A stretch of 10,141 nt of DNA from positions 1 through 10,141 of the forward strand of contig JAZDPL010000080.1 of assembly GCA_043797665.1 (NCBI GenBank). The letters are read 5' to 3'. The stretch is from Candidatus Omnitrophota bacterium (GTDB lineage Bacteria; Ratteibacteria; UBA8468; MWAK01). Each line of letters begins with the position of its first letter. The stretch's first letter is position 1. The notes below the pieces were generated by a model, which saw nothing but the letters and a program-made list of their open reading frames with translations, searched no databases and was not told the origin of the DNA. This document shows positions 200 through 9,539 of the stretch, one piece after another. A program made the translations under genes and the position numbers.

Positions 200-847
200 T
201 TAATCACGGGCTAAGGCAATACCGAAGACTTCAGCCGCCCCGGCGGAAAGGAGGGTGTTACGGCAGACATTCAGGGTGGCGCCGGTGGTCAGCACGTCAT
301 CTACCAGGAGACAGACCCGGTCTTTGACTATTTCCGGTTTGCGAACCTGAAACGCTCCGGCTACGTTAGCCATCCGTTGTTTTTCGGAAAGAGTAGTCTG
401 GGAAGGGGTATTCTTAACGCGGACAATAATCCGGCTTGCGACGGGTAATGAAAATCTGGCTGCCAGTTCCCGCGCCATAAGTTCTGACTGGTTAAAACCC
501 CGTTCCCGCTGCCGGCTGGAATAAAGCGGTACCGGAATGACGCAGTCTATCCTTTCGTTTAACCGATAGTATTGAAATAATTCAATCAATAATTTACTTA
601 AGTGTGGTGCCAGGTAGGTCTCCCCGCGGTACTTGAAACGGTGAATTGCGGTAGACATTGGTTTCTGGTAACGTACCGCGGCGAAAAGAGAACCGGAGAC
701 CGGAACGGTCAACGGTTCAATCTGACTGAAGCACTCTTTGCAAAAAATACCCTCTGGTATCTTCCGGTCGCAGGCAACGCAAAAATCGGGGTAGAAAAAA
801 TCAAGCAGTCCCTGCCCCAGTGTTTTTAGCATATAATTTTTATTCAT
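200..847 (-). CDS. comF: ComF family protein (Zn-ribbon plus phosphoribosyltransferase-like domain), 215 aa
   Basis: N-terminal CVAC...FCKEC double CxxC, VIPVPL, RGFNQSE and LLVDDVLTTGATL motifs. Start reassigned from 937 to the ATG at 847, which overlaps the trxB stop (ATGA) and removes 30 codons lying inside trxB. Confidence 0.92.
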   Translation of the reverse strand: MNKNYMLKTLGQGLLDFFYPDFCVACDRKIPEGIFCKECFSQIEPLTVPVSGSLFAAVRYQKPMSTAIHRFKYRGETYLAPHLSKLLIELFQYYRLNERIDCVIPVPLYSSRQRERGFNQSELMARELAARFSLPVASRIIVRVKNTPSQTTLSEKQRMANVAGAFQVRKPEIVKDRVCLLVDDVLTTGATLNVCRNTLLSAGAAEVFGIALARD

Positions 848-1761
848 ATCTTCGCCAGGTATTCTGCGGCGGAATGGGCCGCGATGGCACCGTCCGCGCA
901 GGCGGTAACTACCTGCCGCAACGATTTCCGGCGGCAATCGCCGCAGGCGAATAGCCCGGAAGACTCGGTCTCCATCTTATCGTCGGTAATGATATATCCC
1001 TGAGCGGTAGACTTTACTTCAGGCGGCAAAAACCCTGTACTGGGCTTAAACCCGGCAAAGATAAAGACGCCGTCGACCGCAATTGATGATTCCTGGCCGG
1101 TATCCGAGTTCCGGAGCTGAATACCGGAAACCCGGTCTTTGCCCAAAATCTGAAGTACGACACTCTTACTGATAATTTCCACCCCGGGCTGCAGGTTTAG
1201 TTTTCCGGTCAATTCCTGGTTAGCGGATAGGGATTCTCTCTGATGAACCAGGATTACCTTCCGGGCAAAACCGGTTAAAAGAAGAGCCTCCTTGACCGCA
1301 ATCGTGCTGCTGCCGACAACCGCTACGGTCTTATTCCAAAACAGGGGACCGTCACAGGTAGCACAGTAGGATACTCCCCGGCCGATAAATTCCGTTTCTC
1401 CGGGTACGTCCAATTTTTTGGGTTGACTGCCGGAAGCAACAATTACCGCCTTTGTTTGGTATGACTGACCTGCCTCCACGACAAACTTTTTTTCATCCTC
1501 TTTTTTGACTGCGGTAACCTGACCGTTCACAATTCCGGCGCCGGCCTTCTCTGCCTGCTCCTTCATCCTCCGGGCTAATTCTGAACCGCTGATACCTTCA
1601 GGAAAAGCCGGGTAGTTCTCTATCCGGTCGCTCCAGGCTAATAACCCGCCGGCAATTAATCCTTCCAGTAGTATCGGCTTTAAACCCCTTCTGGCTCCGT
1701 AAAGACCCGCAGTTAAACCGGCCGGACCGGCCCCAATGATTATCAGTTCTTGTATTTCCAT
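844..1761 (-). CDS. trxB: Thioredoxin reductase-like flavoprotein (low-Mr TrxB family), 305 aa, with degenerate NADPH-binding motifs
   Basis: FAD motif IIGAGPAGLTAG, IENYPAF, active site GVSYCATCDG (C133/C136), GLFACGD and LRQVVTACADGAIAA. SD-like AAGGGG lies 3 nt upstream of the ATG. Confidence 0.92.
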   Translation of the reverse strand: MEIQELIIIGAGPAGLTAGLYGARRGLKPILLEGLIAGGLLAWSDRIENYPAFPEGISGSELARRMKEQAEKAGAGIVNGQVTAVKKEDEKKFVVEAGQSYQTKAVIVASGSQPKKLDVPGETEFIGRGVSYCATCDGPLFWNKTVAVVGSSTIAVKEALLLTGFARKVILVHQRESLSANQELTGKLNLQPGVEIISKSVVLQILGKDRVSGIQLRNSDTGQESSIAVDGVFIFAGFKPSTGFLPPEVKSTAQGYIITDDKMETESSGLFACGDCRRKSLRQVVTACADGAIAAHSAAEYLAKI

Positions 1762-1778
1762 AAACCCCTTTGAATGAA

Positions 1779-1807
1779 ATTTTAGCCTTATTTGTTGAAA
1801 AAATCAA
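1779..1807 (-). promoter_or_regulatory. Putative sigma70-type promoter for trxB-comF
   Basis: Minus strand TTGATT (1807-1802), 17-nt spacer, TAAAAT (1784-1779), directly upstream of the AAGGGG SD (1770-1765). Confidence 0.6.
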
Positions 1808-1820
1808 GCGAAACGACGAA

Positions 1821-1849
1821 TTGACGGGGTTGCCAGAATGAATTAAAAT
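1821..1849 (+). promoter_or_regulatory. Putative sigma70-type promoter for feoAB
   Basis: TTGACG (1821-1826), 17-nt spacer, TAAAAT (1844-1849); 5/6 match to consensus at both boxes. Confidence 0.7.
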
Positions 1850-1859
1850 ATTTAGCGAT

Positions 1860-3803
1860 ATGATTACATTAGTGGAATTAAAATCAGGTGAACGAGGAAT
1901 AATCAAAGAACTGCAGGGCGGCCCCGGCTTAAAACGAAAACTTGAAAGCCTGGGAATCAGGGCGGGCGGGAACATCCGTAAAATAAGCGAACCGGGCGGT
2001 CACCGGCCGGCAGTGGTGGAAATAAACGGTTCCAAGATTGCCATCGGATACGGAATGGCCAGAAGAATAGTCGTTGAGGTAGTCCAGATAAAAATTCTTT
2101 TGGTGGGCAATCCCAACGTCGGCAAAAGCGTGGTTTTTTCCAGATTAACAGGACTGGATGTTATTTCTTCCAATTATCCCGGGACAACTGTTGAATACAC
2201 GCACGGCACCGCCTGGATGGAAAAACAGAGAGTCCAAATCATCGACGTTCCCGGAGCGTATACCCTGGAACCCACGAATAAGGCGGAAGAAGTTGCCTCC
2301 GGAATGTTATCAAAAGAGAAGCCCGACCTGGTTATCAACGTCGTTGACGCAACCAACTTAGAAAGAAACCTTTACCTTACGCTGCAAATACTGGAAAAAG
2401 GAACGCCGGTAATCATCCTGCTTAACAAATGGGACATGGCAAAGTGGAAAGGCATAATCATTGACCTGGAGGGACTGTCCCAAAAAATAGGGGTTGAAGT
2501 GGTTCCGTTCGTTGCGGTCACCGGGGAGGGCATAAAAAAACTTCAGACAACGGTTAAAGAAGTAATTTCAAAGCGGGATAAACCGTCTCGGGACATACCC
2601 CCGGATGATGACGGAAAATGGAAATTGATCGGTGAAATCAGCCGTTTTGTTCAAAAAACGGTACACAAACACCCTTCGTTTCTGGAAAAACTGGCTGATG
2701 CCTGCACAAATCCCCTGACCGGTTTTCCCATCGCCCTGATCGTTTTAGCAGTAACCTTCTTCCTCATAAGGTCTATCGGCGAGGGCATGATAAATCACGT
2801 TCTCAACCCGTTTTTTTACAATATATACCATCCTTTTATCGCCGGCATCGTAAACCTGATTTTCCCGGCAGGCATCCTGCAAAAACTGCTTCTGGGAACC
2901 ACGCCAAAATTTATGGAATCTTTCGGTGTTCTTACCACCGGCGTCTATATTCCCTTTGTGATAGTGTTGCCTTACATCCTGTCTTTTTACTTCGTCCTGA
3001 GCTTCTTAGAGGACCTGGGTTACTTACCCCGCCTGGCCGTTCTGCTGGACGGTACTCTGCACCGATTCGGCTTGCACGGTTATGCGGCCATCCCGGTGAT
3101 TTTGGGCCTGGGTTGCAAGGTACCGGCGATGATGTCGGCCAGAATTCTGGAGACGCGGCGGGAAAAGATTATTGCAATGGCGCTGATAATGATGATCGCC
3201 CCCTGCATGCCGCAGAGCGCCATGATTATAAGCATATTGGGAAGATACGGGCTGAAATACCTGGCGGTTGTCTTCGGAATGCTTCTTATCGTTTCGCTGG
3301 TCAGCAGTTCTGTTTTGAACCGATTGCTGAAAGGGGAAACTCCGGAATTATTCGTTGAAATTCCCGCTTATCAAATGCCCAGGATGCGGCCTCTGTTAAA
3401 AAAACTCTGGATGAGGGTTAAAAGTTTTATTTTTGAAGCGGTCCCACTGATCATCCTGGGTATTTTATTCGTGAACATTCTGGATATATCGGGTTTCATA
3501 AAGTTCATTTCAAAACCCCTGGGGCCGGTCATCGCCAATCTGCTTGGATTACCTAAAGAAATCTCTTCTGTCCTGCTTCTGGGATTTCTAAGAAAAGACA
3601 TAGCCATAGCGCTCTTGATTCCGTTCAACCTTTCCGGCAAACAACTGATTATCGCCAGTACTTTTCTGGTGTTATACTTACCGTGTTTTGCCACGTTTTT
3701 TGTTTTATTAAAAGAAATCGGGGCAAAGGATACGTTTAAAATAGTCTCGCTGACTTTCCTTATCGCCTGCCTGGTCGGGGTGATTCTGAATTTAATCCTG
3801 TGA
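1860..3803 (+). CDS. feoB: Fused FeoA-FeoB ferrous iron transporter, 647 aa
   Basis: aa 1-76 are FeoA-like (KLESLGIRAG...VEINGSKIAIGYGMARRIVVE). GTPase motifs follow: G1 GNPNVGKS, G2 NYPGTT, G3 DVPG, G4 NKWD. The membrane domain has LEDLGYLPRLA, LGLGCKVPA, APCMPQ, ELFVEIPAYQMP, GFLRKD and LYLPCFAT. Confidence 0.95.
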   Translation: MITLVELKSGERGIIKELQGGPGLKRKLESLGIRAGGNIRKISEPGGHRPAVVEINGSKIAIGYGMARRIVVEVVQIKILLVGNPNVGKSVVFSRLTGLDVISSNYPGTTVEYTHGTAWMEKQRVQIIDVPGAYTLEPTNKAEEVASGMLSKEKPDLVINVVDATNLERNLYLTLQILEKGTPVIILLNKWDMAKWKGIIIDLEGLSQKIGVEVVPFVAVTGEGIKKLQTTVKEVISKRDKPSRDIPPDDDGKWKLIGEISRFVQKTVHKHPSFLEKLADACTNPLTGFPIALIVLAVTFFLIRSIGEGMINHVLNPFFYNIYHPFIAGIVNLIFPAGILQKLLLGTTPKFMESFGVLTTGVYIPFVIVLPYILSFYFVLSFLEDLGYLPRLAVLLDGTLHRFGLHGYAAIPVILGLGCKVPAMMSARILETRREKIIAMALIMMIAPCMPQSAMIISILGRYGLKYLAVVFGMLLIVSLVSSSVLNRLLKGETPELFVEIPAYQMPRMRPLLKKLWMRVKSFIFEAVPLIILGILFVNILDISGFIKFISKPLGPVIANLLGLPKEISSVLLLGFLRKDIAIALLIPFNLSGKQLIIASTFLVLYLPCFATFFVLLKEIGAKDTFKIVSLTFLIACLVGVILNLIL

Positions 3804-4457
3804 GGAAAGGGGACCAAAAATCCTGGTCCCCAAACGGATCAGGTTCGCTCCTTCTTCAATGGCCATAAGATAAGAATCGCTCATTCCCATGGAAAGGTAT
3901 TTCATATCCACCGTGGAAAGTCCTATTGTCTTAATCCGGTCAAAAAGCCTCTTTGTCTCTTGAAAATAAGTCCTTAAATCCTCCGGATTATTCCGGACCG
4001 GACCCATCGTCATCAGTCCCGTAACTTTCACATTGGGCAAGAATGAAATTTCCGTTACTACCTTTGCCACCTCTTCCGGCACCACCCCGAATTTCTGAAG
4101 TTCCCGACCGCTGTTAACCTCAATTAAAACCGGCATTATCTTTCCGGCCGCCCCGGCTCTTTTATCGATTTCAATAGCGATTTCCAGAGAATCGACCGTC
4201 TCGATCATATCAAAAAAAGACACCGCTTTCTTTACTTTGTTCTTCTGGAGATGCCCGATGAAATGCCAGGAAACCTTTGGCCCGATATTATTAAAAGCAG
4301 ACTCGGCTTCCTGGAGATAATTCTCACCCACAATTTTGACCCCTGCCTCCACCGCCTCCAATATCTCCTGAGGGGTCCTGGATTTTGCCGCGGCTACCAG
4401 TTCTACACCCGGAGGCAATTCCGCCAGAATTGCCTGCACTTTCTCTTTAATCCCCAT
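3792..4457 (-). CDS. yggS: YggS/PLPBP pyridoxal phosphate homeostasis protein, 221 aa
   Basis: LVAAAKS (PLP lysine), GENYLQEA, WHFIGHLQKNKVK, GLMTMG, LSMGMSDSY, EEGANLIRLGTRIFG. Confidence 0.96.
   Translation of the reverse strand: MGIKEKVQAILAELPPGVELVAAAKSRTPQEILEAVEAGVKIVGENYLQEAESAFNNIGPKVSWHFIGHLQKNKVKKAVSFFDMIETVDSLEIAIEIDKRAGAAGKIMPVLIEVNSGRELQKFGVVPEEVAKVVTEISFLPNVKVTGLMTMGPVRNNPEDLRTYFQETKRLFDRIKTIGLSTVDMKYLSMGMSDSYLMAIEEGANLIRLGTRIFGPLSSQD
3809..3831. terminator. GC-rich hairpin just downstream of the feoAB stop, inside the yggS 3' end
   Basis: GGGGACCA-aaaatcc-TGGTCCCC, a perfect 8-bp stem 5 nt after the TGA at 3803. No U-tract on plus and only TTT on minus, so terminator function is uncertain. 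Confidence 0.3.
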
Positions 4458-4462
4458 AAGAA

Positions 4463-5347
4463 TTATGTTAGACGGCCGATGGGGTCAACGTGAATGGTAA
4501 CGCGGGAAACACCCGACACCTGTTGTTTCAAATGGTGTTCCACCTCATCGGCAATCTGATGACCTTTCTGGACGCTTAAGTTTCCATCCACCAGGATGTG
4601 CATCTCCACCAGGATATCCGGACCCAGCCGGCGGGCAGCCAGATCATGCACGCGGCGCACGTCCTTGACGGAAGAAACCACCGCCTGAATCTGATTCAGC
4701 GTCGGTTCTTCCACCGAACTCTCAACCAATTCCGCAAAAACACCCTGGCCGATATTCAGACCGATGCGCAGGATGAAAATTGAAGTAATAGCTGCGGCCA
4801 GCGGATCCATAAAAGGAAAACCGATCTTAGCGCCCAGGATGCCCAAAAATGTCGGGATGGAAGAAATAGCATCGGAGCGGTGATGCCAGGCGTTGACAAT
4901 TAAAGCCGAACTGTTAATCCGGAGGCCAACCCGGATTGTATAACGATAAAGCCCCTCTTTGAAAACGATTGAAAAGACCGCGGCAATCAGGGGCAGGAAG
5001 GTTGGTATGGTCCGGTAATGGGTTAAAGCGCTGAAAACCCCACGGTACATAAACGCGAAACCGAATACCAGGAGGAATACGGTGCAGACCGCCGCGGCCA
5101 TAGTTTCAAATTTGCCGTGGCCGTAAGGATGATCTATGTCTTTGGGCTGGGCGGCTACCCTCAAACCGAAGAGGACGACAACGGTCGCCACAATGTCAGC
5201 GAGGGTTTCAAACGCATCGGTCACCATCGCCTGGCTGCGCCCCAGGACTCCGGCGATCATCTTAAAAACGAAGAGACCGACATTAATTGCCAGGGCGACC
5301 AGCGTGTTTTTACGGCCGGCAAAATAACGTTCCTGTTGATTAAGCAT
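4463..5347 (-). CDS. Cation diffusion facilitator (FieF/YiiP-like) metal exporter, 294 aa
   Basis: SQAMVTDAFETLAD (TM2), DIDHPYGHGKFE, AWHHRSD (TM5), DPLAA; C-terminal domain with VHDL, EMHILVD, GHQIA and TIHVDP. Confidence 0.93.
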   Translation of the reverse strand: MLNQQERYFAGRKNTLVALAINVGLFVFKMIAGVLGRSQAMVTDAFETLADIVATVVVLFGLRVAAQPKDIDHPYGHGKFETMAAAVCTVFLLVFGFAFMYRGVFSALTHYRTIPTFLPLIAAVFSIVFKEGLYRYTIRVGLRINSSALIVNAWHHRSDAISSIPTFLGILGAKIGFPFMDPLAAAITSIFILRIGLNIGQGVFAELVESSVEEPTLNQIQAVVSSVKDVRRVHDLAARRLGPDILVEMHILVDGNLSVQKGHQIADEVEHHLKQQVSGVSRVTIHVDPIGRLT

Positions 5348-8300
5348 TAGTGAAACGCGGCTTTATTCTTTCTTCGAAAAGAACGTAAAGGACCGGAATA
5401 AAGAAAAGGGTCGCAAATAACGCCACCAGAAGACCGCCGATAATGACGATTGCCAAAGGCTTGAAGAACTCCGAACTTTCGCCCCGGCTCAGGACCAGAG
5501 GCACCATACCGAAAATAGTGGTTAAACTGGTCATCAGGATGGGCCGTAAGCGCAGTTGCCCGGCCTGGATGATTGCCGAATTTAAAGGAAGTCCCTGTTT
5601 ACGCAGGTCTATCGCAAAAGAAAGCAGAATAATCCCGGTCTCCTCTACAATTCCCACCAGCATGATTAAACCCAGAAATGAGGTAAGAGAAAGGGTATAA
5701 CCGGTCAAAAAAAGCGACCAGACCACTCCCACCAGACTCAGCGGTACCGCAAACATAATAACGAAAGGGTCAAGATAAGACTCGAACTGACTTGCCATTA
5801 CCATATAGACCAGAATTATGGAAAGGATTAGAGCAAAACCCATGGTCCGGAAGGACTTAACCTGCTCCTGGCGTCCGCCGGCAAAAGAAAGGGAAAAACC
5901 CGCCGGCATAACCAGTTTACGGAATCCGGCGGTTGCTTCCGAAACGATGTCGCCCAGCGACCGGTCGTATATCTCCCCGCTTACCTCCACAATCCGCTCC
6001 TGGTTGCGGCGCTGGATGGAGATTGGTCCTGAACCCAGCGTGACATCGGCAACCTCGGAAAGGCGAACCAATCCGCCGTCAGGCGTGGCGATAAAAACTC
6101 CGGAAAGTATTTTGGGATTGCTCCGGTCCGCCGGCCCCAGACGCACCATTATGTCATACTGTTCACCCAATTCCCGAAACTTATTGGTGGTGTCGCCTTC
6201 AAAATATGTTTTGACCTGGTCGGCGATGCCGGCGACACTCAGGTTCATCAGACTCGCTTTTTCGCGGCGTACCTTTATCTGGTATTCGGGCTGTCCCTCA
6301 TCCCGGCTGATGTCCACGTCGGAAACGCCCGGAACCTGGGCCAATATCCGGGCCACCTGGCGGGATAAATTTCGCGAATTATCCAAATCATAGCCCCTTA
6401 TTTCCACCGTCAAAGGTTTACTCCCGCCAAAAAGCATGGAAGCCATCGGGTCAGAGGCAGAAAACAGGACATTAGCCTTCGGGAATTTCATTAAAGGCTT
6501 AAGCGCCTGGGCAATCTCACGGGTGGACCGCTGGCGTTTATCTCTGTCTACCAACTTTGCCATTACGGTACCCCGGTGTCCGGCCGGCGGCTTGCCACCC
6601 ATCATGGCCAGAGAACGGCTCCTGAGTCCCCTGCCCCACCGGGCAAGAACAACCTCCAACTCCGGAACATTATCCACGATTATTTTTTCTATCTGATGCA
6701 TTACCTTTTCGGTCTCCTCGTAACGGGTCCCGATGGGCAATTCTACGTTATAGGTCAACAGGCTCTGTTGCATCTCAGGCATAAACTCCGTACCGACTAA
6801 AGGAATCAGGGAAAAAGAAGCAACCATGAGAACTGACACCATAATGATAACCTTCTTCTTATTGCTCAACGCCCAGTTTAAAAAAGAACCGTAGGCAAGG
6901 GATAAACGCCGGAAAAACTCTTCACCCTTTTGAAACAGATTTTTTTGCCAGCCGATGCTTTCTCCCGGAAGACGAAGAAATTTGCTGGAAAGAAGGGGAA
7001 CTAAGGTGAGGGCGGTGAAAAGAGAACATAAGAGGGTGAAAGAAAAGGAAAATGCCAACTGCCGGAAGAGAATGCCGCCGATACCGCCGGTGAAGACAAC
7101 CGGCACGAATACGGTTACTACCGCTAATATTGACGCAATGACCGCCGGTGCCACTTCTCTGGTACCGGAGAGGACGGCGTCAAACCGTTCTTCCCCTCCC
7201 TCATGGTGCCGGAGAATGTTCTCAAAGACCACTATTGAGGCGTCCACCACCATACCTACCGCAATCCCCAGACTGGAAAGCGAAATAAGGTTTAAGGTGA
7301 AACCGGCTCCGTACATCAGAATAAAAGTAGTAATCAGACTGATGGGAATGCTGGCGGCAACGATGAAACTGCTGCGGATGTCCCGCACAAAGAAGAAGAT
7401 GACCAGAATCACCAGGAGTCCTCCCTGGAGAAGAGAATCCCGCAGGCTGCTGATGGAACGCTTGACAAAATCCGACTGGTCAAATATATAATGTAATTTA
7501 ACGTCCGGCGGTAGATTCCGGCTGAGTCTCCGGAGTTCTTTCTGAACACGGCTTACCACTACCACCGTATTGGTACCGGACTGTTTTTGGACCATCATCA
7601 CCAAACCTAATTTCTGGTTGATGCTAACGTCTCCGGACTTTTCCGCAAAGGCATCGGTTACCGCGGCGACGTCTTTTAAAAAGACCGGCCTGCCCTGAAC
7701 CTGCTTAACCACAATCCGACTTAACTGGTCAATGGTAACTTCTTCCGGTGTCCGTACCACATATTCGTAAGGACCGCCTTTGATAAATCCACCCGGCATA
7801 TTGAGGTTAGCCTGATGGATGGCACCAACCACCGCACTTATGGGAACCCGGTATGCCTCTAACCGCTGACGGTCTATCCCCACTTCAATTTCCCGCACGT
7901 TGCCGCCAAAAATAGCCACCGAAGCCACCCCGGGTAACTGTTCTAACTGGCGACTTACTTTCTTATCCAGGTATTCATACATCCGGGTATAACTATCCTT
8001 TACTTCTACTCCAACTATTAAAACCGGCATCATCGCAAAATCAAATTTCATCACGTAGGGTTTATCGGCCTCGTCCGGAAGTAATGTCTCCACCAGACCC
8101 GCTTTATCCCGGACTTCGCTCGCCTTCTCCTCCAAATCTACGCCAAATTCAAATTTCAGGGTAACGATGGAGACGTCCTGGTTGGAGGTGGATTCAATTT
8201 TATCCAGACCGCTCACGGTAGCCATCTCATTTTCAATCGGCAGGGTCACCTGACTCTCCACTTCCTGAGGACCGGCCCCGGGATAATAGGTAACAACCGC

Positions 8301-8435
8301 AATGGTGGGAATTTCTATTTCCGGCAATAAATCCAGACCTAACCGGCATAGAGAAATGACGCCGATAATCAACAAACCTAAAAAAACCATGGCGGTTAAG
8401 ACCGGCCGGCGGACGCCAATTTCAGATAGATTCAT
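5340..8435 (-). CDS. RND efflux transporter permease (AcrB/AcrD/AcrF superfamily), 1031 aa
   Basis: VRRPV N-terminus, YPGAGPQEVESQVTLPIE, TM4 GMVVDASIVVFENI, MASQFESYLDPFVIMFAVPL, RLRPILMTSLTTIFGMVPL, PLAIVIIGGL; typical length and two-repeat architecture. Confidence 0.96.
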   Translation of the reverse strand: MNLSEIGVRRPVLTAMVFLGLLIIGVISLCRLGLDLLPEIEIPTIAVVTYYPGAGPQEVESQVTLPIENEMATVSGLDKIESTSNQDVSIVTLKFEFGVDLEEKASEVRDKAGLVETLLPDEADKPYVMKFDFAMMPVLIVGVEVKDSYTRMYEYLDKKVSRQLEQLPGVASVAIFGGNVREIEVGIDRQRLEAYRVPISAVVGAIHQANLNMPGGFIKGGPYEYVVRTPEEVTIDQLSRIVVKQVQGRPVFLKDVAAVTDAFAEKSGDVSINQKLGLVMMVQKQSGTNTVVVVSRVQKELRRLSRNLPPDVKLHYIFDQSDFVKRSISSLRDSLLQGGLLVILVIFFFVRDIRSSFIVAASIPISLITTFILMYGAGFTLNLISLSSLGIAVGMVVDASIVVFENILRHHEGGEERFDAVLSGTREVAPAVIASILAVVTVFVPVVFTGGIGGILFRQLAFSFSFTLLCSLFTALTLVPLLSSKFLRLPGESIGWQKNLFQKGEEFFRRLSLAYGSFLNWALSNKKKVIIMVSVLMVASFSLIPLVGTEFMPEMQQSLLTYNVELPIGTRYEETEKVMHQIEKIIVDNVPELEVVLARWGRGLRSRSLAMMGGKPPAGHRGTVMAKLVDRDKRQRSTREIAQALKPLMKFPKANVLFSASDPMASMLFGGSKPLTVEIRGYDLDNSRNLSRQVARILAQVPGVSDVDISRDEGQPEYQIKVRREKASLMNLSVAGIADQVKTYFEGDTTNKFRELGEQYDIMVRLGPADRSNPKILSGVFIATPDGGLVRLSEVADVTLGSGPISIQRRNQERIVEVSGEIYDRSLGDIVSEATAGFRKLVMPAGFSLSFAGGRQEQVKSFRTMGFALILSIILVYMVMASQFESYLDPFVIMFAVPLSLVGVVWSLFLTGYTLSLTSFLGLIMLVGIVEETGIILLSFAIDLRKQGLPLNSAIIQAGQLRLRPILMTSLTTIFGMVPLVLSRGESSEFFKPLAIVIIGGLLVALFATLFFIPVLYVLFEERIKPRFTNA

Positions 8436-8441
8436 ATTTTG

Positions 8442-9539
8442 TCACTTTACAACTTCTACTTTTATGCCTTCAAAGAGAGTATCAATGCCTGCGTCTGCCA
8501 CCGATTCTCCTTCCGAAAGACCTGATAGGACTTCATACCGGTTCTCTTCCTGAATACCCAGGGTAATCTCTTTCTGGTGAACCACACCGTCTTTAATAAC
8601 GAAGACGTATGTCTTATTTCCCTGGCGACTCAACGCTTCTTGCGGAATGGTCAGGACGTTTCTTCGTGTCCCCACCAGAATATCCGCCCGGACGAACATT
8701 CCGGATTTCAAACGGAGATTCGGATTGGAAATGCGCATTTCGCAGGTGGTGGTCCGGGTAGACGGGTCCAGGACCGGATTGATTCGGGAGACACTGCCGG
8801 TAAAAGTACTTTCCGGAAAAGCATCCGGTTTTATCTTAATCTGCTGCCCCGGACGAATCCGGGCTAACTCGGTCTCTCCTATCGGCACCCGAACCTTCAC
8901 GAAACTCAAATCTACTAAATCCAGGATTGGGCCGGCGGCAGGGGTAATAAAAATACCCGGGTCAAGATAGCGCTTGCCTACAAATCCGCTGAAAGGTGCG
9001 GTAATCTGACAATCGGAGAGTTGTTCCCGGGCTAAATCAGACTGGGATTTAAACCGTTCAGATGTAGCCTGAGATACATCACGCCGGGCACGGACGTTAT
9101 CCATCTCCTGAGACGTAATCACCTCTTCTTTAAAGAGTTTTTCCATCCGCTTAAATGAACTCTCCGCATTGGCTGAATCCACCCGGGCAGCCTTCAAAGC
9201 CGCCTCTGCTTCCGACAGACGCAATTGATAATCCCGCTCTTCCACTTTAGCCAGGACCGCGTCCTTCTCTACCCGGTCACCCTCCTGAAAAAAGACCCCT
9301 TCCAATTTTCCGGAAACCCGGGAGAAAACCGGTATGCTTTTATCGGGTTCAACCGTTCCGGAAAATGAAAACGATTCGCTTAAATTGGCCCGGCCAACCG
9401 TCTGGACCGTAACCGGTATTAAAACCGACTCCTTTTTCTGCTTTCTGCCGGAAAGCCGATGGTAAGACTGAAACAAAACTAAAACCACTAAAACCGCAAT
9501 CACTAAGTATCTTCCCTTTTTTTTCATAATTTTTAACAT
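8442..9539 (-). CDS. RND periplasmic adaptor (membrane fusion protein), about 361-365 aa
   Basis: Basic N-terminus plus one hydrophobic helix, lipoyl half-motifs SRVSGKLEGVFFQEGDRVEK and ITAPFSGFV flanking an alpha-hairpin, INPVLDPSTRT, LKSGMFVRA, GLSEGESV. An alternative ATG start is at 9527. Confidence 0.94.
   Translation of the reverse strand: MLKIMKKKGRYLVIAVLVVLVLFQSYHRLSGRKQKKESVLIPVTVQTVGRANLSESFSFSGTVEPDKSIPVFSRVSGKLEGVFFQEGDRVEKDAVLAKVEERDYQLRLSEAEAALKAARVDSANAESSFKRMEKLFKEEVITSQEMDNVRARRDVSQATSERFKSQSDLAREQLSDCQITAPFSGFVGKRYLDPGIFITPAAGPILDLVDLSFVKVRVPIGETELARIRPGQQIKIKPDAFPESTFTGSVSRINPVLDPSTRTTTCEMRISNPNLRLKSGMFVRADILVGTRRNVLTIPQEALSRQGNKTYVFVIKDGVVHQKEITLGIQEENRYEVLSGLSEGESVADAGIDTLFEGIKVEVVK

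Follow-up and report, generated by a model that had tools for sequence, protein, structure and literature searches.

What supplies the electrons to a thioredoxin reductase that has lost both of its NADPH-binding motifs? The question is raised by trxB in the window, that is, the whole stretch of 10,141 nucleotides analysed here, which comes from a Candidatus Omnitrophota bacterium (assembly GCA_043797665.1, contig JAZDPL010000080.1). Judged by its motifs, the encoded enzyme (P0001) very probably does not use NADPH efficiently, and the family of its host has deleted the gene for NAD kinase. The interest of P0001 comes from this setting, broad biosynthesis without an NAD kinase. The host genome (G000; 86% complete, 2.69 Mb) belongs to a family, f1, of nine genomes (G000-G008), and the class-wide survey covered 41 genomes, these nine and 32 others. 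Identical database proteins carry the labels Candidatus Ratteibacteria or Omnitrophota, from which we take f1 to be Ratteibacteria. P0001, its 14 closest homologues and P0020 make up the set of 16 proteins referred to below as the clade, with P0040 standing outside it. The parts of the gene that matter to the argument, all on the minus strand, are the following.

844..1761, minus strand: trxB, a low-Mr thioredoxin reductase homologue of 305 residues, two-domain, without a C-terminal tail (open reading frame, TIGR01292, AlphaFold model, fold comparison)
1717..1734, minus strand: FAD-binding GxGxxG, here GAGPAG, residues 10-15, intact (FAD-core positions 97% conserved in the clade)
1375..1383, minus strand: thioredoxin-docking G-R-G, residues 127-129, intact (alignment; motif as given in PMC5627308)
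1354..1365, minus strand: redox-active CATC, residues 133-136, followed by D137 (C133, C136 and D137 invariant)
1285..1314, minus strand: degenerate pyrophosphate loop GSSTIAVKEA, residues 150-159, canonically GGG[DN]xAxxEA (alignment)
1225..1245, minus strand: degenerate 2'-phosphate motif HQRESLS, residues 173-179, canonically HRRxxxR (alignment)
1213..1215, minus strand: E183, acidic just past the motif where Ile, Val or Leu is usual (Glu or Asp in all but one of the 16 clade proteins)
1039..1059, minus strand: FAGFKPS, residues 235-241, presumably near the adenine ring, with a small residue at 236 and the usual Asn 241 lost (common to the GEG-type enzymes of family f3)

The two altered motifs, beginning at G150 and H173, lie where the sequence-only reading had put them and align with GGGNTA and HRRxxxR of the E. 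coli enzyme. Its description of the rest of the protein also stands, as GAGPAG, ASG, CATC and GD are all present and the C-terminus (YLAKI) shows no tail in the alignment. The aromatic residue after the CxxC is represented by F141, position 140 being L in P0001 and F in most clade members. In the AlphaFold model (pLDDT 89.8) both domains are intact, and the model superposes on 5mh4 (Z 38.9, root-mean-square deviation 2.6, 301 residues aligned) and on the Thermoplasma acidophilum reductase 3cty (Z 36.6, deviation 2.7, 299 aligned). Structures of the FFTRs (flavin thioredoxin reductases that depend on ferredoxin), of TRi and of DTR are absent among the 50 entries listed in this comparison, from which no exclusion follows. 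The best sequence match in the PDB is the NADPH-dependent Methanosarcina mazei enzyme 4zn0 (250 bits), and the Gloeobacter FFTR scores 175, the T. acidophilum enzyme 166, clostridial FFTR2 113-120 and the Desulfovibrio TRi 111 bits. The anticipated risk of mis-annotation is real, since P0001 passes TIGR01292, if narrowly (350.7 bits against a cut-off of 343.45), and the JGI annotation calls its relatives P0009 and P0014 'thioredoxin reductase (NADPH)'.

Sequence error is excluded by P0002, P0003 and genome G001 (90% identical), which share both altered motifs, and strain-specific decay is not seen, the 14 closest homologues likewise lacking GGG and HRR. [HY]RRxxxR is kept in 104 of the 120 best homologues, and the 16 exceptions are these 14, P0020 and P0040, the last through a single R-to-K change. 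Within the clade HRRxxxR is absent from all 16 proteins, its three arginines being lost or scrambled: none has arginine at position 179, and most have none at 174 or 175 either. Residues 173-184 carry a net charge of -0.9, as against +2.75 in NADPH-dependent thioredoxin reductases (NTRs). All but one of the 16 have S or N in place of the loop's middle glycine, and the third glycine is present in 13 of 16. The break of the third glycine in GSS is genus-specific, most members having GSG or GNG. Conservation in the clade reaches 90% in the CxxC region, and all four pairs tested gave a dN/dS of 0.15-0.25 for either domain; the motif loss is a clade trait, and the enzyme is under purifying selection. 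Losing HRRxxxR by itself is common. Of 80 background TrxBs, sampled from named genomes among the matches listed in a contig scan, 61 have both motifs, 14 lack the arginine motif only, 4 lack both and 1 lacks the loop only, so that HRRxxxR is missing in 18. Nor does its loss identify the donor: the T. acidophilum enzyme (TaTR) is reported to use NADH (PMC6262447) and the Desulfovibrio vulgaris TRi neither nucleotide (PMC5627308).

The other half of the finding concerns the genome. Family f1 has deleted nadK from a dxs-nadK-ferredoxin-like locus that is otherwise conserved in the class. A search of G000 with the PF01513 profile gave no match (14 of 14 controls were positive), and the NAD kinase C-domain PF20143 was found in none of the nine family genomes as against 31 of the 32 others of the class, the N-domain search giving the same pattern except for a weak match in G002. 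A profile of 29 class kinases, run against G000 down to frames of 20 residues, gave no match, and the chance of missing nadK through incompleteness in all eight other family genomes is ~3e-7, if misses are independent. Among ten kinase loci outside f1, eight have a small ferredoxin-like gene after nadK and five have dxs before it. In G000 the corresponding gap between dxs and the ferredoxin-like gene, which lies at C33:36264-36515, is below 70 bases and holds no nadK (C33:34392-36515, L214; mid-contig), and the two genes abut in six of the seven family genomes examined (G000-G005), the gene of G006 having another neighbour; this junction is the mark of a deletion. NadA and NadD are retained in G000, and searches there for zwf, folA and pntB gave no match.

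According to a 2015 review, prokaryotes have no de novo route to NADP other than NAD kinase, and the enzyme is essential to them; its table places the gene in 96% of bacterial genera, and Chlamydia trachomatis is the only kinase-less case that it names (PMC4518329). Like family f1, Chlamydia lacks the gene; however, it is an intracellular parasite, whereas G000 is a genome of 2.69 Mb with NadA, NadD, carbon monoxide dehydrogenase and acetyl-CoA synthase (CODH and ACS) and genes of amino-acid synthesis. A literature search, with most subscription journals outside its reach, turned up no publication reporting that this lineage has lost NAD kinase.

As to what reduces the flavin, we put the chance that the donor is a non-nucleotide one, most likely ferredoxin, at about even. 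The sequence-only reading had proposed a donor other than NADPH, ferredoxin for example. Its first part fares well, efficient use of NADPH being very improbable with the arginines lost and the segment acidic; ferredoxin, by contrast, we infer. What favours a non-nucleotide donor is the state of the pyrophosphate loop. This loop is described as conserved in both NADPH and NADH types and degenerate in TRi, which uses no NAD(P)H (PMC5627308). At loop positions 151-154, mean pairwise identity in the clade is 51% as against 72% for the whole protein; in the NTRs of families f4 and f5 the figures are 84% and 60%, and in nine AhpF-like paralogues, which served as an NADH-type control (their NADH use being judged from AhpF-like motifs), 88% and 55%. 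D or N at 153 is kept in 2 of 16 clade proteins, and G[GA]G[DN] is found in 169 of 173 NTRs. Residues 173-179 are 38% identical within the clade and hold no conserved replacement motif. The loop is thus relaxed as well, unlike that of the NADH-type controls, which favours a non-nucleotide donor over NADH, and the nucleotide site looks released rather than re-tuned.

Candidate partners are present in the genome. G000, which is that of an anaerobe by its gene content, carries CODH, ACS and PorA-like genes (the PorA-like one below the curated cut-off), and a 62-residue ferredoxin is encoded at C12:17384-17569, directly upstream of a POR-family gene at the head of an operon resembling that of pyruvate:ferredoxin oxidoreductase (PFOR). 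A thioredoxin with WCNPC lies on C15. Neither an Fe-S ferredoxin-thioredoxin reductase nor a flavodoxin was found in G000 in searches whose controls were positive. P0001 would then be a working thioredoxin reductase in which electrons pass from FAD to CATC and on to thioredoxin, an activity suggested by its anatomy. Its pyridine-nucleotide site would be freed from selection, and its flavin would take electrons from a one-electron carrier of low potential, probably the C12 ferredoxin, as in clostridial FFTRs. The loss would have begun from an ordinary NTR inside this lineage, and the deletion of NAD kinase may leave little or no NADPH to use. When the TrxB dimer was modelled in complex with FAD and the ferredoxin of G000, the prediction scored 0.00, which counts neither for nor against binding.

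With NTRs (TIGR01292; M. mazei 4zn0, E. coli 1f6m) P0001 shares length, fold, FAD motifs, CxxC and G[RK]G, but GGG[DN] and HRRxxxR are both lost across its clade and the site is net acidic there. Clostridial FFTRs resemble it in having neither NADPH motifs nor an aromatic tail, and an anaerobic host with ferredoxin and PFOR-like genes, but they are distant from it by the bit scores given above. Moreover, FFTR2 has about 285 residues, a shortened domain and no first-loop-glycine region, whereas P0001, with 305 residues, shows no deletion relative to NTRs. The absence of both NAD(P)H motifs serves as the working definition of clostridial FFTRs in PMC10880999; P0001 lacks both in this sense, and a formal GxGxxA/G survives in 10 of the 16 proteins of the clade. 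The D. vulgaris TRi (5nii) likewise has both nucleotide motifs degenerate and the docking site intact, but it carries GEGxxAxN and TQ/NGK and usually occurs alongside an NTR, whereas the P0001 clade has GSS, GSG or GNG in sole TrxBs. The f3 enzymes have a GEG loop like TRi, but no TQ/NGK. The cyanobacterial FFTR or DTR (Gloeobacter 5j60) does not use NADPH and is the sole reductase in some hosts, but it needs a C-terminal tryptophan tail (PMC8154056) that P0001 does not have; the FAD midpoint potential of the Gloeobacter FFTR lies near -440 mV (PMC12796991). As this aromatic tail is reported to mark cyanobacterial FFTRs only (PMC8154056 and PMC12796991), its absence from P0001 is uninformative on origin. 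By these motif tests P0001 falls outside NTRs, cyanobacterial FFTRs and TRi.

Several observations weigh against a ferredoxin donor. The NADPH domain is full length, without the FFTR-type deletion, and superposes on NTRs and on TaTR. G150 is invariant, the formal GxGxxA/G persists in the proportion just given, and H173 and R282 are mostly kept, so that NADH binding is possible. In the g3-like subgroup, the largest, conservation of the loop nearly equals that of the remaining protein (78% against 82%). The T. acidophilum enzyme was itself first called nucleotide-independent and was later shown to use NADH (PMC6262447). Relatives that bear canonical NTRs have the ferredoxin to the same extent, and it hence does not discriminate. 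Finally, G006 is kinase-less with a canonical TrxB and family f3 kinase-bearing with a degenerate one; the TrxB change and the kinase loss overlap in seven of nine genomes, yet this is a single lineage event.

A distinct possibility, though one we would not favour, is that the enzyme switched to NADH, the dinucleotide site being kept and the arginines dropped because NADH is the sole pool without an NAD kinase. The sequence-only reading gave NADH too little weight, given the report that TaTR uses it without HRRxxxR (PMC6262447) and that the Thermotoga maritima enzyme (TmTR) and D. vulgaris TR3 do likewise (PMC5627308); 3cty, TmTR and the Thermosipho structure 7jyp resemble P0001 in having a full-length domain without HRRxxxR. 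The retention of NadA and NadD is in keeping with such a switch, as are the full-length Rossmann domain, the invariant first glycine and the third glycine of most clade members. GSG and GNG loops are, besides, ordinary in NADH flavoproteins. FabG, GpsA, ketol-acid reductoisomerase (KARI) and ProC carry an acidic residue at beta2 throughout the class. However, the tip of beta2 in the clade has no acidic residue, the 173-179 segment acquired no motif in place of the old one, and in the genus of the window the third glycine is gone as well. GGG[DN] is kept in 9 of 9 AhpF-like paralogues and lost in the clade, and it is kept by 7jyp (GGGDSA), whose NADH use is judged from kinship with T. maritima. 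The NADH-using TR3 group, too, keeps its pyrophosphate motif (PMC5627308), and the P0001 clade does not.

It is rather unlikely that a weak use of NADPH persists, with NADP supplied by an unrecognised kinase or by uptake and the motif changes being tolerated drift. P0001 does retain R175 and H173, the motif-intact NTR P0026 has a serine at the third loop position, and G006 together with P0017-P0019 has canonical motifs. Motifs that we read as NADP-type, from their match to NADP-dependent E. coli enzymes, also occur elsewhere in the family: NRT in all five copies of Gnd, YRR in the three GltA- or NfnB-like proteins, those of Asd in three of three and of AroE in two of three, altered in G000; QueF is present. 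Against such a use stand the acidic segment, the want of arginine at 174, 175 and 179 in most of the clade, and the failure of both Pfam and the 29-kinase profile to detect an NAD kinase in G000. Least probable is that the gene is in decay or now serves a purpose other than reducing thioredoxin: a trxB fragment in G000 and the mosaic gene of G006 do speak of gene turnover at this locus, but the reading frames are intact under the low dN/dS given above, FAD, CxxC and docking residues are conserved, the motif-less enzyme is the sole TrxB-type gene in most family genomes, and G000 has a thioredoxin for it to reduce.

The inventory behind these statements is as follows. The motif-less enzyme is the only TrxB-type gene in seven of the nine f1 genomes, the G007 copy being cut by a contig end, and the check for a second canonical trxB found no other full-length copy in G000. 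G002 has AhpF-like fragments only. The trxB fragment in G000 is a 72-codon stub in mid-contig, in a region that also holds a glycosyltransferase-like gene (C64:7234-8803, L056). The stub shares 92% DNA identity with the gene of G008, which is of another genus, and the adjoining 1342 bases are 94.6% identical to the G008 flank; either a truncated import or a binning artefact would account for it, and it is no spare NTR. In G006 (L007, C5:49807-50712) a trxB with canonical motifs occupies the same locus upstream of comF in a genome without NAD kinase, and P0017-P0019 keep the canonical motifs as this enzyme does. By gyrB, G006 nests among the motif-less genomes of its genus (no rpoB match was obtained in G006). 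Its trxB shares 79-84% DNA identity with the motif-less congeners over the last 19 codons only, and over codons 24-43 it is 48-53% identical to them as against 83-87% among the other congeners. The gene is a mosaic with a native 3' end, in which the site was either regained or kept. Stand-alone AhpF-like reductases of about 310 residues without the N-terminal domain (L037-L044, L049) occur as second copies in f3 and f4. Contig C64 of G000 also carries a 1174-residue open reading frame (551-4072) with many internal repeats at 64-70% DNA identity.

Where did the motif-less enzyme come from? In a FAD-domain tree of 53 rows picked from 268 plus three references, with the motifs lying outside the alignment, the f1 enzymes, degenerate and canonical, join the shortened GEG-type enzymes of f3 (support 96/93) and stand apart from the NTRs of f2, f4 and f5. 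The species tree places f1 with f2 and f3 with f4 and f5; the disagreement implies that trxB moved or was replaced. A grouping of degenerate f1 enzymes with f3 in the NADPH-domain tree vanished once the motif columns were removed and was rejected, so that the f1/f3 grouping rests on the FAD-domain and full-length trees. L111, the sole proxy for clostridial FFTRs (best PDB match 6gna, E 8e-73), falls outside the motif-less clade in all trees, albeit as a single proxy on a long branch, and the approximately unbiased test of joining it to the clade gave p 0.42 and 0.20, with none of four groupings rejected. That the loss happened independently of the clostridial FFTRs, as the sequence-only reading suspected, seems likely, since motif-intact sisters (54-57% identity) sit in the same clade; its argument from the missing tail falls away, clostridial FFTRs being tail-less as well (PMC8154056). 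The f3 group (L031-L036; about 286 residues, GEG loop, Lys at the position of the FAD-loop Gln) has ccdA-like and radical-SAM genes as companions and PFOR gamma/delta-like genes as neighbours, and by these features would be a stronger ferredoxin-linked candidate than P0001.

The kinase deletion also bears on the cell as a whole. It is conceivable, though we think it less likely than not, that the cell is largely NADP-free, with the kinase deleted, the anabolic reductases already of NADH type and TrxB running on ferredoxin or NADH. FabG, GpsA and KARI do look NADH-type, their acidic residue being class-wide, kinase-bearing genomes included. A switch of these three enzymes upon nadK loss was considered and rejected on that ground; the residue is rather a pre-adaptation than a response to kinase loss. 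The meaning of the acidic residue in ProC is uncertain. An NADP-free cell sits poorly with the NADP-type motifs of Gnd, the GltA- or NfnB-like proteins, Asd and AroE and with QueF, and an adjacent gene pair that we take to be NfnAB has kept 75% identity, for which it is hard to see a reason if there is no NADP. Kinase-less G006 retains a canonical TrxB, and G002, of the earliest-branching genus, has at another locus a divergent kinase-like reading frame (C3:587-1396, L159; 268 residues, GGDG motif; E 1e-13 to the class profile, below the Pfam cut-off and without a Pfam C-domain match), which is possibly a replacement kinase. Because the motifs of Gnd, Asd and the Nfn-like protein are retained, we think it somewhat more likely that NADP is present through an unrecognised kinase or uptake. 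Searches for such sources were negative: nucleotide carriers of the TLC type in 0 of 41 genomes, where no control was positive and the result is uninformative; nothing in five family genomes searched with the G002 protein, again with no positive control; and no zeta-toxin-like P-loop in G000 by a crude regular expression rather than a profile, a scan prompted by a plant NAD kinase of that fold (bioRxiv 10.1101/521658).

If the cell is indeed NADP-free, it would be a biosynthetically capable bacterium without a cofactor that is considered universal; should it contain NADP, the unrecognised kinase or uptake route would be new as well. In a family that has cleanly lost the kinase but still makes NAD and has a wide range of biosynthetic genes, the dispensability of NADPH can be tested on few proteins, and motif-less and motif-intact TrxBs of 57% identity, in one genus and at one locus, offer a rare recent comparison for a change of donor. 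The NADH-type KARI, FabG and GpsA of the class are of practical interest for anaerobic bioproduction.

The gene directly downstream of trxB completes the locus.

200..847, minus strand: comF-family gene, whose ATG at 847 overlaps the trxB stop (ATGA)

The order trxB-comF is kept in six of the seven f1 loci with a motif-less trxB, and in G005 and G006 the gene directly upstream of trxB is yggS. In the window, a FeoA-FeoB fusion in a single 647-residue reading frame (1860-3803, plus strand) diverges from trxB; at the matching position G004 has a Fur-like gene and feoB. Positions 3792-9539 (minus strand) form a single run of yggS, a cation diffusion facilitator transporter and a probable resistance-nodulation-division pump with its membrane-fusion protein. 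Elsewhere in the class, the fingerprint loop of Gnd reads GMEVMG, with Glu replacing Ala, in all seven copies seen (in G000 at C20:8259-9812, L211), and in most genomes the open frame that contains the rpoB match is about 2500 codons long (G000:C60, L058-L087), which suggests an rpoB-rpoC fusion.
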